From a virus (Duplodnaviria; Heunggongvirae; Uroviricota; Caudoviricetes): a stretch of DNA of 10,501 nucleotides. Positions within the stretch are counted from its first letter, which is position 1; each line of letters begins with the position of its first letter. The notes under the pieces are model-generated. The model saw only the letters and a list, made by a program, of their open reading frames with translations, was not told the DNA's origin and did no database searches. Shown one piece after another: positions 1 to 10,501 of this stretch. The stretch is from positions 1-10,501 of IMG/VR virus record IMGVR_UViG_2681813225_000023; one strand, 5' to 3'. A program made the translations under genes and the position numbers.

Positions 1-460
1 CCACGCCAGAGACGTGTTGCTGTGGCGACCGTCATCACTTCCGGTCAGCACGTCGTGCGTTTTCCCCTTGTTGTCAGTTACGCGGAGATAATCCCCGGAG
101 AAAGTCGACACACGGCTGTAAGCCATACCGCCTGACGCGGATGCGCCGCCACCAACAGCCCCGCCAATGGCGCTGCCGATACTCCCGACAATCCCCACCA
201 TTGCCTGCTTAAGCAGAATTTCTGTCATCATGGACAGCACGGAACCGGTGAAGCTACGCCAGTTCTGTTCACTGCCGGTCAGCATCGCCGCCATATTCTG
301 TGCAATACCATCAAAGGTCTGCGTGGCTGCACTTTTTACCTGCAACATACAGTCCGTGGCGCTCTCTTCCCACTCACTCCAGCCGGACTTCAGGCCTGCC
401 ATCCAGCTCCCGCGAAGCTGGTCTTCAGCCGCCCAGGTCTTTTTCTACTCTGACATGACG

Positions 461-480
<20 letters not shown>
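1..480 (-). pseudogene. H: Internal fragment of the tail tape-measure gene (lambda gpH-like); 5' two-thirds missing, in-frame TAG at 445-447, continues past window start
   Basis: Minus frame open from 444 to 1 (148 codons) reads KKTWAAEDQLRGSWMAGLKSGWSEWEESATD...AMVGIVGSIGSAIGGAVGGGASASGG..., which I recognise as the C-proximal part of lambda gpH. Codons 480-448 read NPLALNNVMSE in the same frame, then TAG. The frame is entered from a TGA at 481-483, so there is no start codon. Confidence 0.75.
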
Positions 481-3954
<3,474 letters not shown>

Positions 3955-4677: not shown

Positions 4678-4689
4678 AGGTCGCCGCCC
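4678..4689. other. cos: cosN: the 12-nt cohesive-end sequence of lambda
   Basis: AGGTCGCCGCCC on the plus strand is GGGCGGCGACCT on the minus strand. It sits 178 bp upstream of the Nu1 start in the lambda context (CGCGGGTTTTCGC follows). Confidence 0.85.
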
Positions 4690-6441: not shown

Positions 6442-6735
6442 ATGAAAAAAATGCTACTCGCTACTGCGCTGGCCCTGCTTATTACAGGATGTGCCCAACA
6501 GACGTTTACTGTTCAAAACAAACCGGCAGCAGTAACACCAAAGGAAACCATCACCCACCATTTCTTCGTCTCTGGAATTGGGCAGAAGAAAACTGTCGAT
6601 GCAGCCAAAATTTGTGGCGGCGCAGAAAATGTTGTTAAAACAGAAACCCAGCAAACATTCGTAAATGGATTGCTCGGTTTTATTACTTTAGGCATTTATA
6701 CTCCGCTGGAAGCGCGTGTGTATTGCTCACAATAA
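6442..6735 (+). CDS. bor: Bor outer-membrane lipoprotein (serum-resistance moron), 97 aa
   Basis: MKKMLLATALALLITGCAQQTFTVQNKPAAV... has a signal peptide with lipobox LITGC and is near-identical to recalled lambda Bor (97 aa). It is convergent with Rz, as in lambda. Confidence 0.93.
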   Translation: MKKMLLATALALLITGCAQQTFTVQNKPAAVTPKETITHHFFVSGIGQKKTVDAAKICGGAENVVKTETQQTFVNGLLGFITLGIYTPLEARVYCSQ

Positions 6736-6743
6736 TTGTATGA

Positions 6744-6765
6744 GTTGCCCATCGATATGGGCAAC
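6744..6765. terminator. Hairpin between convergent bor and Rz; candidate bidirectional terminator
   Basis: GTTGCCCAT-cgat-ATGGGCAAC is a perfect 9-bp stem with a 4-nt loop. It starts 9 nt after the bor stop and ends 1 nt before the Rz-frame stop (6767-6769). The flanking U-tracts are weak. Confidence 0.45.
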
Positions 6766-6766
6766 T

Positions 6767-7227
6767 CTATCTGCACTGCTCATTAATATACTTCTGGGTT
6801 CCTTCCAGTTGTTTTTGCATAGTGATCAGCCTCTCTCTGAGGGTGAAATAATCCCGTTCAGCGGTGTCTGCCAGTCGGGGGGAGGCTGCATTATCCACGC
6901 CGGAGGCGGTGGTGGCTTCACGCACTGACTGACAGACTGCTTTGATGTGCACCGACGACGACCAGCGGCAACATCATCACGCAGAGCATCATTTTCAGCT
7001 TTAGCATCAGCTAACTCCTTCGTGTATTTTGCATCGAGCGCAGCAACATCACGCTGACGCATCTGCATGTCAGTAATTGCCGCGTTCGCCAGCTTCAGTT
7101 CTCTGGCATTTTTGTCGCGCTGGGCCTTGTAGGTAATGGCGTTATCACGGTAATGATTAACAGCCCAAGACAGGCAGACGATGATGCAAATAACCAGAGC
7201 GGAGATAATCGCGGTTACTCTGCTCAT
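6767..7227 (-). pseudogene. Rz: Rz (inner-membrane spanin) gene with a 1-nt deletion frameshift near 6951
   Basis: From ATG 7227 the frame reads [45 protein letters not shown]...DDVAAGRRR (lambda Rz residues 1-92), then shifts into the Rz1 frame ([21 protein letters not shown]...). The true Rz C-terminus ([60 protein letters not shown]) is in another frame at 6950-6767. Confidence 0.85.
6826..7007 (-). pseudogene. Rz1: Rz1 (outer-membrane lipoprotein spanin) embedded in Rz, disrupted by the same 1-nt deletion
   Basis: ATG at 7007 follows AAGGAG and reads [19 protein letters not shown], then shifts at the lipobox Cys codon to [10 protein letters not shown]. The mature Rz1 sequence [41 protein letters not shown] continues in the Rz N-terminal frame down to 6826. 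Confidence 0.75.
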
Positions 7228-7700
7228 ACCTCAATCTCTCTGACCGTTCCGCCAGCTTCTTTGAATTTTGCAATCAGGCTGTCAGCCTTATGCTCGAACT
7301 GACCATAACCAGCGCCCGGCAGTGAAGCCCAGATATTGCTGCAACGGTCAATTGCCTGACGAATATCACCGCGATCAATCATCGGTAAAGCGCCACGTTC
7401 TTTAATCTGCTGCAATGCCACTGCGTCCTGGCTTTTGGGGGAGAAGTCTTTCAGGCCAAGCTGCTTACGGTAAGCATCCCACCAGCGTGAAAGAAGCTGA
7501 TAACGTCCGGCTGCTGTTGATTTGAGTTTGGGGTTTAGCGTGACAAGTTTGCGAGGGTGATCGGAGTAATCAGTAAATAGCTCTCCGCCTACAATGACGT
7601 CATAACCATGATTTCTGGTTTTCTGCCGTCCGTTATCCGTTCCTTCTGACCATGCCACCATATCGAGGAAAGCTTTACGCTGAGGATTAAGATTTTGCAT
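7224..7700 (-). CDS. R: Endolysin R (lambda-type lytic transglycosylase), 158 aa
   Basis: [61 protein letters not shown]... has the same length as lambda R and is near-identical except for the first ~15 residues. The catalytic Glu in WSEG is present. Stop overlaps the Rz ATG. Confidence 0.93.
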
Positions 7701-7992
7701 TTTTCACCCCTGTCAGTCGTTCCCAGAAGTATGTCAGTGCAACCGAACCCATCGCACCACTAATCCCCGCTGTCGCGAGAATCATGTAAATACTGAATCC
7801 ACTTTCGATACTGATCAGGCCACCAATAACACCGGTGAATCCCGACACCACTATCTGAGCCAAAGCATTTATCCAGCTCCACGTTGCTTTACTCTGCTTC
7901 ACATCTATCAGGTAGCGGACCAGACCGCCCCAACCTGCGATGATCAGCAAAACGAGCCAGAACGCTCCGGCAAGGCTCTCTTTTTCGTGCAT
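7687..7992 (-). CDS. S: Holin (class I, three predicted TMDs), non-lambda family; an in-frame TTG at 8004 lies 4 codons upstream
   Basis: The ORF lies immediately upstream of and overlaps R. The product MHEKESLAGAFWLVLLIIAGWGGLV...WINALAQIVVSGFTGVIGGLI...GFSIYMILATAGISGAMGSVAL...[11 protein letters not shown] has three hydrophobic segments and a charged C-terminal tail. It is unrelated to recalled lambda S. Confidence 0.75.
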   Translation of the reverse strand: MHEKESLAGAFWLVLLIIAGWGGLVRYLIDVKQSKATWSWINALAQIVVSGFTGVIGGLISIESGFSIYMILATAGISGAMGSVALTYFWERLTGVKNAKS

Positions 7993-8106
7993 ATGAATAG
8001 CCAATGTTTCGCCGCCGACAAAAGGCCGGGACGTTAAATGTCAGAAATCAGGCTCACGGGGTAATTTAACGACAAAGCACGGAGTTGATGCTCCCCGCAA
8101 GCCTGG

Positions 8107-8132
8107 AATAAAAAAGCCAGCATGTAGCTGGC
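8107..8132 (-). terminator. tR'-like intrinsic terminator between the Q-like gene and the holin
   Basis: On the minus strand GCCAGC-tacat-GCTGGC (6-bp stem) is followed directly by TTTTTTATT. It lies about 115 nt upstream of the holin start, matching the lambda pR'-tR' (6S RNA) layout. Confidence 0.6.
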
Positions 8133-8254
8133 AACAGAGGGTTAAGCAATATCAACTCAACAGCTGAAGACACCCTGGCTGGGGTACGTTGGAAGGATAC
8201 TCACCGCCCAGAAACAGAAAAGCCCAAGGCTTTAAACCTCGGGCTTGAATTTGG

Positions 8255-8283
8255 ATTACGGCCAGTGCGTACAACATTGGCAA
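8255..8283 (-). promoter_or_regulatory. Candidate late promoter (pR'-like) and probable Q-utilisation region
   Basis: On the minus strand TTGCCA (8283-8278), a 17-nt spacer, then CGTAAT (8260-8255). It sits about 30 bp downstream of the Q-like stop and about 120 nt upstream of the terminator. The -10 match is weak. Confidence 0.3.
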
Positions 8284-8313
8284 AATATCAGATTTACATA
8301 AAACATATGATTT

Positions 8314-8916
8314 TTAATCCAGTTTTGCAATATCTTGCTGTGAAAATGTGGTCTTTTGTTTTGAACGTGTTTTCGTTAAAAGCAATAAAGCTTGGCTATC
8401 AAGCTGTAGAAAAATGTGCTTCATTGCAACCCAGCGTTCAGTAAATGTCTCAGACCAGTTTTTTGATGTCACTCCCACCAGTGATGCCAACTCCTGGTAT
8501 TCATAGGTCTTACGCCCTGCCAGCTCGTTCTTCACATCCTGTGCCGCCAGCCAGATCAACTTCTTCAAACGTTCCAGTGTCTTACCTGCAATTTTCCTGG
8601 TACCCAACAGAGTCTTAAACTCGCTCCATGCCCACTGCGTTATGGTGACCTGATGTTCCCAGCGAACACTTTCGCTGTAACTCCACAGCAACCACGCTTT
8701 CTGATGTTCTTCGAGAGACAGAACCGCGCGGCGCCATGATGATGTTGAGAACTCGATCGGACTGACCAGGGCAATGGATGAGCCTTTCGCCCGTGACTGC
8801 TTACCGGGTATCGGCGGATTATCCAGCGTTATTAACCTGCCGGTCACTTCATCCAGAATGCGCGGTTTCTTTCGTTTGTATGTATGCTTGCCGACATGGG
8901 ACTTGTTCAATGACAC
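8314..8916 (-). CDS. Hypothetical protein in the position of late antiterminator Q; family not recognised; possibly 5'-truncated
   Basis: 200-codon ORF (VSLNKSHVGKHTYKRKKPRILDEVTGRL...YEYQELASLVGVTSKNWSETFTERWVAMKHIF...) directly upstream of the promoter-terminator-holin arrangement. It begins at GTG with no ATG and no clear SD; the frame is open upstream only to 8955. Confidence 0.35.
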   Translation of the reverse strand: MSLNKSHVGKHTYKRKKPRILDEVTGRLITLDNPPIPGKQSRAKGSSIALVSPIEFSTSSWRRAVLSLEEHQKAWLLWSYSESVRWEHQVTITQWAWSEFKTLLGTRKIAGKTLERLKKLIWLAAQDVKNELAGRKTYEYQELASLVGVTSKNWSETFTERWVAMKHIFLQLDSQALLLLTKTRSKQKTTFSQQDIAKLD

Positions 8917-9167
8917 CTCAGCAAGAAAACGCCCTTCGCAGTATTGCCCGTCAGGCTAATTATGAAATCAAAAAAGCCAGACAGCAGTTTCCGGATAAAA
9001 ACGTCGATGACATTTGCCGTAGCGTACTGAAGAAGCACCGCGAAACGGTAACGCTGATGGGATTCACACCGACTCATTTAAGCCTGGCGATATATCGGTC
9101 ACAAACTCCCTCAGCAGCTAAGAGGAGGACAAATGTCTCGACTAATCACTTTACAGGACTGGGCTAA
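8910..9167 (+). CDS. Small hypothetical protein upstream of xis, 85 aa from ATG 8910
   Basis: Track ORF 8778..9167; its first 44 codons run antisense through the Q-like 5' end, so the ATG at 8910 (MTPQQENALRSIARQANYEIKKARQQFPDKNVDDICRSVLKKHRETVTLMGF...) is more plausible. The 3' end overlaps the xis start by 35 nt. No family recognised. Confidence 0.35.
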   Translation: MTPQQENALRSIARQANYEIKKARQQFPDKNVDDICRSVLKKHRETVTLMGFTPTHLSLAIYRSQTPSAAKRRTNVSTNHFTGLG

Positions 9168-9369
9168 AGAAGAATTTGGGGACTTAGCACCAAGTGAGCG
9201 AGTTCTGAAAAAATACGCGCAAGGGAAAATGATGGCCCCACCCGCTATAAAAGTTGGTCGCTACTGGATGATTGACCGAAATTCCCGTTTTGTAGGAACG
9301 CTTGCAGAACCGCAACTCCCAATCAACGCAAACCCAAAACTCCAACGGATAATCGCTGATGGCTGCTAG
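9133..9369 (+). CDS. xis: Excisionase (lambda Xis-like), 78 aa
   Basis: MSRLITLQDWAKEEFGDLAPSERVLKKYAQGKMMAPPAIKVGRYWMIDRNSRFVG... shares the LTLQEW...PPP-K-GR motif pattern of lambda Xis. Strong SD AGAGGAGG 5 nt upstream. It overlaps the int start by 11 nt, as in the lambda xis-int arrangement. Confidence 0.8.
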   Translation: MSRLITLQDWAKEEFGDLAPSERVLKKYAQGKMMAPPAIKVGRYWMIDRNSRFVGTLAEPQLPINANPKLQRIIADGC

Positions 9370-10501
9370 ACCCCGATCTCACAAAATCTCTATACCCAAT
9401 TTATATTGCAAATTAGATAAGCGAACCGGAAAGGTATATTGGCAATACAAACATCCACTATCCGGTCGTTTTCATAGTTTAGGAACTGATGAGAATGAAG
9501 CAAAACAGGTTGCTACTGAAGCAAATACCATTATTGCTGAACAACGTACCCGACAAATATTAAGCGTCAATGAGCGTCTGGAAAGAATGAAAGGCAGGCG
9601 CTCAGACATTACGGTGACAGAATGGCTTGATAAATATATTTCTATCCAGGAGGACAGGCTGCAACATAATGAACTAAGACCCAACTCCTATTGGCAAAAA
9701 GGCAAACCCATTCGTCTCTTCCGTGAGCATTGTGGAATGCAACACCTCAAGGATATTACCGCACTTGATATTGCCGAAATAATTGATGCTGTAAAGGCTG
9801 AAGGTCATAACAGGATGGCGCAAGTCGTGAGAATGGTGTTGATCGACGTCTTCAAAGAAGCACAACACGCAGGACATGTTCCGCCAGGATTTAACCCAGC
9901 GCAGGCAACAAAACAACCGCGAAATCGAGTAAACCGCCAAAGATTATCACTGTCCGAATGGCAGGCAATATTTGACAGCGTAAGTAGACGGCAGCCCTAT
10001 TTAAAATGCGGGATGCTACTTGCTCTTGTCACTGGACAACGTTTAGGCGATATCTGCAATTTGAAATTCTCTGATATCTGGGACGACATGTTGCACATTA
10101 CTCAGGAAAAAACCGGTTCAAAACTTGCTATTCCGCTTAACCTGAAATGCGATGCTCTGAATATTACCCTTCGTGAAGTTATATCTCAGTGCAGGGATGC
10201 TGTTGTTAGTAAATATCTGGTCCATTACCGTCACACTACCTCTCAAGCAAACAGAGGAGACCAGGTGTCTGCAAATACTCTTACAACGGCTTTTAAAAAG
10301 GCCAGGGAAAAATGTGGCATAAAATGGGAGCAAGGAACTGCGCCCACATTTCATGAGCAGCGATCTCTGTCAGAACGGTTATATCGGGAACAGGGTCTGG
10401 ATACGCAAAAGTTGTTAGGTCATAAATCCAGAAAAATGACCGACCGATACAATGATGATCGTGGTAAAGACTGGATTATCGTAGATATCAAAACAGCATA
10501 G
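9359..10501 (+). CDS. int: Tyrosine integrase (lambda Int family), 380 aa, apparently intact
   Basis: MAARPRSHKISIPNLY...ALVTGQRLGDICNLKFSDI...TFHEQRSLSERLY...LLGHKSRKMTDRYNDDRGKDWIIVDIKTA aligns by eye with lambda Int (R, K, HxxR, H and Y catalytic positions present). The stop codon is the last three bases of the window. Confidence 0.93.
   Translation: MAARPRSHKISIPNLYCKLDKRTGKVYWQYKHPLSGRFHSLGTDENEAKQVATEANTIIAEQRTRQILSVNERLERMKGRRSDITVTEWLDKYISIQEDRLQHNELRPNSYWQKGKPIRLFREHCGMQHLKDITALDIAEIIDAVKAEGHNRMAQVVRMVLIDVFKEAQHAGHVPPGFNPAQATKQPRNRVNRQRLSLSEWQAIFDSVSRRQPYLKCGMLLALVTGQRLGDICNLKFSDIWDDMLHITQEKTGSKLAIPLNLKCDALNITLREVISQCRDAVVSKYLVHYRHTTSQANRGDQVSANTLTTAFKKAREKCGIKWEQGTAPTFHEQRSLSERLYREQGLDTQKLLGHKSRKMTDRYNDDRGKDWIIVDIKTA

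Follow-up and report, generated by a model that had tools for sequence, protein, structure and literature searches.

The lysis cassettes kept by prophage remnants of Escherichia coli K-12 such as DLP12 (rzpD/rzoD), Rac (rzpR/rzoR) and Qin (rzpQ/rzoQ) are variously decayed according to EcoCyc/RefSeq annotation. In phage lambda, Rz1 lies within Rz in the +1 frame, and a knockout of either one blocks lysis, leaving spherical cells with the outer membrane intact (PMC6139136). The Rz protein is built of an N-terminal transmembrane domain (TMD, residues 1-24) and two coiled coils, CC1 (27-87) and CC2 (121-150); its C-terminal region is the binding partner of Rz1, and Rz1 is lipoylated at Cys20 (PMC5295617). 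Mutant hunts in the laboratory have yielded loss-of-function alleles of both genes, of the nonsense and the frameshift type (Cahill et al., G3 2017, PMC5295617). Lysis fails with nonsense alleles of Rz all along the periplasmic domain, codons 151 and 152 included; Rz1 alleles that block translation, signal sequence function or processing are defective as well (PMC5295617). A unimolecular spanin of the T1 gp11 type unites in a single polypeptide an N-terminal lipoprotein signal, which provides the outer-membrane anchor, and a C-terminal TMD (PMC5295617, PMC6139136).

The stretch of DNA analysed here (the window, 10,501 bases) carries on its minus strand a lambda-type Rz/Rz1 pair that is one base short at a critical spot, Table 1. 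We aligned the reverse complement of window positions 6760-7230 with positions 45963-46434 of lambda (NC_001416). The pairwise alignment has 472 columns, five substitutions and one gap, and the nucleotide identity over the 472 aligned positions is 99%. The sole gap changes GGTTGC to GGTGC on the coding strand: where lambda has ...CGT CGT CGG TTG CAC ATC..., the window has ...CGT CGT CGG TGC ACA TC.... One T of the TT is gone, so that CGG-TTG-CAC becomes CGG-TGC-AC; seen from the plus strand, an A is missing beside A6951. The position corresponds to codon 93 of Rz and codon 20 of Rz1. Four of the five substitutions fall inside Rz and leave the protein unchanged, residues 1-92 being those of lambda Rz. 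The alignment confirms the indel near 6951 that the preliminary description had proposed from the reading frames, and a single missing base does account for both frame jumps.

In all other respects the pair (PF03245 Phage_lysis and PF06085 Rz1) is that of lambda. Residues 1-92 and 94-153 of Rz, and residues 1-19 and 20-60 of Rz1, agree with lambda in every amino acid. The two genes lie downstream of a lambda-type R and are convergent with bor. The endolysin R is 96% identical to lambda R over an ungapped alignment, and the AWSEGT motif with Glu19 is kept. Two differences from lambda stand out. Due to the missing base neither full-length protein is encoded, and the holin is of the LydA type (PF16083), whereas lambda has S. 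The holin profile is fully covered. The holin and the endolysin are both intact, as had been claimed before. The holin length in Table 1 is counted from the ATG chosen by PGAP in the relatives.

Table 1. Features of the window. In the columns: the feature, its position in the window, the strand, and the evidence or remark.
Feature	Position	Strand	Evidence or remark
1-nt deletion site	6951..6952	-	lambda alignment and base-by-base comparison with E. coli 2014C-3011
Chimeric ORF, 133 aa	6826..7227	-	Rz 1-92 + mature Rz1 20-60; translation, Pfam, PHROG
Truncated Rz1 ORF, 29 aa	6918..7007	-	translation compared with lambda Rz1
Orphan Rz frame, residues 94-153 (linker L2, CC2, C-terminal domain)	6767..6952	-	translation; PF03245 66-126/126
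Endolysin R, lambda-type transglycosylase, 158 aa, intact	7224..7700	-	PHROG 90 endolysin; intact annotation in near-identical genomes
Holin, LydA / holin superfamily III type, 101 aa	7687..7992 (or to 8004)	-	PF16083 2-78/78; PHROG 785 4-104/107
Putative late-operon leader between Q' and holin	8116..8246	-	pattern scan only
Antiterminator Q, N-terminally truncated	8314..8916	-	PF06323 34-217/220; PHROG 304 36-224/224
Excisionase xis	9133-9369	+	
Tyrosine integrase	9359-10501	+	adjoins icd in source chromosome
bor lipoprotein gene, 97 aa, intact	6442..6735	+	convergent with Rz
Portal gene, split	917-1855 and 461-868	-	PF05136 2-257 and 284-354 on separate ORFs
Tape-measure C-terminal fragment fused to lom fragment	1-444	-	PHROG tape-measure and Lom hits; PGAP pseudogene notes

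The reading frames break as the preliminary description had stated. Translation from the Rz start gives lambda Rz up to residue 92 and then enters the Rz1 frame, ending at the Rz1 stop codon. The resulting chimera contains the Rz TMD (1-24) and CC1 (27-87; limits per PMC5295617), and it is matched by two Pfam families, PF03245 (positions 1-68 of 126) and PF06085 (1-40 of 41), and by two PHROGs, PHROG 13 (1-94 of 154) and PHROG 3198 (20-62 of 68). From the Rz1 ATG at 7007 the frame runs through the signal peptide of 19 aa and then through ten out-of-frame residues to a stop, so the Rz1 frame is lost exactly at the lipobox cysteine. This stub lacks Cys20 and the entire mature o-spanin. The remainder of Rz is left in an orphan frame that begins with HIKAVCQ and ends with EQCR; it is detached from the Rz start and TMD, and its sole possible start is a fortuitous GTG. 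Both the Pfam and the PHROG profiles break at the deletion point, as the reading frames do. A rescue of Rz by programmed frameshifting or slippage was considered and rejected by direct reading of the sequence, as CGG-TGC has neither a slippery heptamer nor a long homopolymer.

The cassette still has the embedded two-component architecture, with the holin-R-Rz/Rz1 order and coordinates that match lambda. It is the ancestral state at this locus; with the frameshift, the two frames have become merged. An i-spanin has an N-terminal TMD with a periplasmic CC1, which the chimera has, and a contiguous periplasmic domain that runs through CC2 to the C-terminal residues in contact with Rz1 (to about 152), which is broken at residue 92. 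An o-spanin has its signal peptide, lipobox Cys20 and proline-rich mature domain in one frame, and here they are divided between two. Mature Rz1 (20-60) is encoded intact, but as the C-terminus of an Rz-initiated chimera, and therefore without signal peptidase II processing and without a lipid anchor.

One missing base hits both subunits because the two genes share this DNA, Rz1 being read within Rz in the +1 frame; by the same arrangement, any 1-nt deletion in the 183-nt overlap swaps both frames. The Rz-initiated product is then always 133 aa long and ends at the Rz1 stop, and other junctions of this kind are seen in the database proteins P0044, P0054 and P0122 and in a sister remnant, L006. 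At the present junction, ribosomes starting at the Rz ATG slip into the Rz1 frame and produce an inner-membrane-anchored Rz(1-92)::Rz1(20-60), while those starting at the Rz1 ATG leave the Rz1 frame and produce a 29-aa peptide without the lipobox cysteine. The chimera lacks linker L2, CC2, the Rz1-binding residues of the Rz C-terminus and the outer-membrane lipid anchor. Neither product should be able to connect the inner membrane with the outer one or to fuse the two, and spanin function would be gone.

The double loss of function predicted in the preliminary description is supported by the lambda alleles (PMC5295617). Like some of these alleles, the locus has Rz cut within or after CC1 and Rz1 deprived of processing and lipoylation; on the grounds of the published lambda genetics the prediction that both spanin subunits are dead is well founded. 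The difference is that in the laboratory the genes were placed on separate plasmids and hit singly, while here one natural indel removes both and makes a chimera. A role like that of a unimolecular spanin was rejected on topology. Compared with the T1 gp11 type the chimera has the opposite layout, with an N-terminal TMD, no lipobox-processed N-terminus and a single membrane anchor.

The lysis genes belong to an element with the gene order int-xis-Q'-holin-R-Rz*-bor-ybcV-cos-Nu1-A-W-portal(pseudo)-H'/lom', adjoining icd; the gene that follows bor is a DUF1398 (ybcV-like) gene. The early region expected between xis and Q is deleted, and xis is joined directly to Q, which misses about 33-35 N-terminal profile positions and whose frame enters from junction sequence beside xis. 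According to PGAP, the copy of Q in E. coli 2014C-3011, a near-identical complete genome, is 'incomplete; missing N-terminus', and all differences between the window and this genome lie outside Q. At the other end, the portal gene is interrupted by an internal stop between 868 and 917. The tape measure is fused to lom, and therefore the head genes past the portal and most tail genes have been deleted. In 2014C-3011 the complete element is ~25 kb long and is located between icd and a partial icd copy, and in its PGAP annotation Q, the portal and the tape measure are all given as incomplete pseudogenes.

No genes for a repressor, for O/P replication proteins, for the capsid or for the tail tube are present in the window or in the ~25-kb element of the near-identical genomes. 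The same skeleton recurs in the gene tables of sister loci. An immunity/replication region, a full-length Q and complete head and tail modules, which characterise an inducible lambdoid prophage, are thus absent from the element. It is a cryptic remnant, with lysis genes under no obvious selection. As in the cryptic prophages of E. coli, the early, head and tail genes have been lost, the lysis cassette and bor-type cargo are kept, and the lysis genes are gaining lesions. In contrast to these, the remnant is located at icd in a chromosome of the STEC O177:H- type, and the spanin lesion is private to a strain and not fixed in a lineage.

Three further observations concern the structure of the element. 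Matches in many other genomes begin at window position 479, which marks a deletion junction. A plus-strand ORF over the xis/Q junction (about 8911-9168) is annotated by PGAP as 'cell division protein ZapA' in the relatives, a name that is probably spurious. The lambda cohesive-end sequence of cos, GGGCGGCGACCT, is intact at 4678-4689 on the minus strand, upstream of full-length Nu1 and terminase A, and the remnant thereby keeps a cos site that is potentially packageable despite the missing head genes.

The leader between the truncated Q and the holin contains two strong terminator-like sites, each a hairpin followed by a T run, at 8246-8220 and 8132-8116. In the region 6700-9400, 11 such sites are observed where 3.0 are expected. 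The two hairpins are placed like the Q-antiterminated terminator of lambdoid late operons, which is consistent with a Q-dependent leader that silences the cassette when no helper Q is available. Against a neutral reading of the lesion, the holin and the endolysin are still intact, and in principle a co-resident prophage could supply the Q for their expression.

Over the whole window, four complete genomes are identical at a rounded 100% over 10,502 bases. These are 2014C-3011, isolated from a human, and SMN013SH2, SMN152SH1 and SMN197SH3, isolated from cattle, the latter three being STEC O177:H- with fliC H25 (PMC5814490). Compared base by base with 2014C-3011, the window has two differences, the missing base and a synonymous T/C at 9985. 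In all four relatives Rz is full-length and agrees with lambda Rz at every residue, the Rz1 frame is intact, and PGAP names this intact allele 'rzpD: prophage endopeptidase RzpD'. A 76-nt query centred on the lesion matches, by megablast, 4,697 records in 4,130 of the 5,426 complete E. coli genomes, as well as 84 phage records from GenBank. In all these genomes and matching phage records the best hit is always 98.7% (one gap) and never 100%. The exact 49-nt pattern with the deletion has no match in IMG/VR, the GTDB species representatives or the JGI metagenomes.

An exact-protein look-up of the chimera identified a single other carrier, the draft contig JABACX010000060.1 of GCA_013185785.1. 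This contig and the window agree at all 9,965 bases that they share, and the contig differs from 2014C-3011 over 16.7 kb by the same gap and the same SNP and nothing else. It ends at window position 537, i.e. 536 bases inside the window; since the two ends differ, the window is another assembly or version of the same clone, with the same lesion. Two 3.5-kb ENA contigs (L003 and L004), first taken as candidates for independent carriers, were rejected, as they have a neighbouring deletion instead, of the G of CGG. The SNP at 9985 lies in int (Ser209, AGT vs AGC) and is common to the window and the draft contig.

We consider it probable that the locus carries a recent, private, single-lineage 1-nt deletion that pseudogenises both spanin subunits, as a step of neutral decay in a dead prophage remnant. 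The main alternative is a sequencing or assembly artefact, i.e. that the strain truly has GGTTGC and that the base was lost by mistake when the consensus of a multi-copy prophage segment was called or polished. The Rz segment has up to nine matching places per genome in these strains (nine in 2014C-3011), and a segment present in so many copies makes mapping and polishing error-prone. The deletion is also unique, with no further carrier in the 5,426 complete E. coli genomes or the other collections scanned, and the relatives that are otherwise identical over 10.5-16.7 kb retain the base. In addition, the adjacent GG/TT is a recurrent indel site in noisy ~3.5-kb contigs derived from lambda, and more than 100 database clusters of Rz::Rz1 chimeras are found, nearly all on indel-rich ENA contigs of ~3.4-3.58 kb.

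The quality of the surrounding sequence argues against such an error. There is no other indel in the 10.5 kb of the window or the 16.7 kb of the draft contig. Error-prone data would fail first at the homopolymer runs of 5-7 nt, and all 50 of these runs in the window are the same as in the finished genomes. The lone indel affects a run of 2 nt; the preliminary description had pointed to a homopolymer context, but the site is only a TT dinucleotide. The presence of the same lesion in two records with different ends favours a real mutation, although both records may go back to one read set and hence be non-independent. The contig comes to an end near the portal/tape-measure deletion junction, which other prophages share, and such breaks at repeats are typical of short-read assemblies; its structure would thus be short-read-like, and in assemblies of this type consensus indels should be rare. 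We therefore regard an artefact as possible but rather unlikely, and a real mutation as the likelier of the two.

An independent 1-nt deletion in Rz/Rz1 was found in the sister remnant L006 (3631-4032; GCA_003015365.1, PVZZ01000002.1), where a run of six C is shortened to five, CCTCCCCCCGAC to CCTCCCCCGAC. The product is again 133 aa long and consists of Rz 1-117 and the Rz1 C-terminus. This lesion could be genuine decay or a long-read homopolymer error. An independent deletion is consistent with relaxed selection, and it counts in favour of a real mutation in the window.

As a protein, the chimera has many apparent relatives. Its own 90% cluster consists mostly, and the more than 100 neighbouring clusters almost entirely, of ORFs on the ~3.4-3.58-kb ENA contigs, and many of these ORFs carry the same RRR|CTSKQ junction. 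Examples are the contigs L003 and L004 (ENA ERZ22171710) and the proteins P0010-P0128, with PF03245 + PF06085 chimeras on indel-riddled sequence of the lambda right end. A contig size of ~3.4-3.58 kb is presumably that of the amplicon from the lambda right end which is added to nanopore libraries as a control. The ~3.5-kb contigs are probably sequencing-control DNA assembled in metagenomes, i.e. database noise that mimics a family. A homology search with the chimera gave no indication that natural Rz::Rz1 fusions form a conserved family. The idea of such a recurrent family was rejected: nearly every match is a singleton on a ~3.5-kb ENA contig, and the few chimeras that are borne on genomes differ in their junction. 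The vast majority of Rz::Rz1 chimeras in large protein sets from metagenomes are therefore indel artefacts on ~3.5-kb contigs derived from lambda and do not represent a protein family.

It is very improbable that the chimera is functional, either as an inner-membrane-tethered Rz1 that titrates the Rz C-termini of co-resident lambdoid prophages (a dominant-negative anti-spanin by which their lysis would be delayed), or by altering killing by holin and endolysin (spheroplasting or vesicle release in place of bursting). The idea draws on the Rz TMD, CC1 and the complete mature Rz1 being kept in frame, on the intact holin and endolysin, on the many lambdoid prophages with near-identical Rz in these STEC genomes, and on the binding of Rz1 to the Rz C-terminal region (PMC5295617). 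The form of the protein calls for no selection, however, as any 1-nt deletion in the overlap gives 133 aa, and there is no conservation: the allele belongs to a single lineage whose closest relatives are wild type. Among the other chimeras in the databases the junctions are scattered and most of the proteins result from errors, and the truncated Q together with the terminator-like hairpins before the holin makes expression doubtful. Very improbable, too, is that the chimera is expressed through the Q of a co-resident lambdoid (e.g. Stx) prophage and acts as a decoy on the Rz C-termini of that prophage; a cryptic-prophage 'anti-spanin' of this kind would delay or soften outer-membrane disruption and modulate lysis and toxin release.

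We return to neutral decay as the preferred reading. The frameshift is best understood as a further, neutral step of decay from which no phenotype is expected, because the remnant has no induction circuitry, its Q is truncated, and the co-resident lambdoid prophages presumably bring their own spanin pairs. The preliminary description proposed to compare induced lysis with and without Mg2+. Such a test presumes an inducible prophage, and the element is a remnant without immunity and replication genes, with an N-truncated Q, a portal pseudogene and absent head and tail genes. Since the element is not inducible, induction with or without Mg2+ would give no phenotype attributable to the lesion. 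The older 'only with divalent cations' phenotype of spanin mutants is itself a matter of shearing in shaken flasks.

The lesion is not novel, as it belongs to a familiar class of pseudogenising indels in cryptic prophages. Its biological significance is low, a verdict that is subject to confirmation from the reads. The locus is of some use as a clean example of how one indel removes both spanin subunits when Rz1 is embedded in Rz, and it illustrates that the lysis cassettes of cryptic prophages decay piecemeal. Annotation should label the 133-aa ORF a pseudogene instead of a 'lysis protein'.

If the deletion is real, it would provide a convenient clone-specific marker inside the lineage related to STEC O177:H-. 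The deletion creates a 6-bp palindrome at 6947-6952, GTGCAC, which is the recognition sequence of ApaLI and is absent from the wild-type allele, so that a simple PCR-RFLP assay for the deletion allele is possible.
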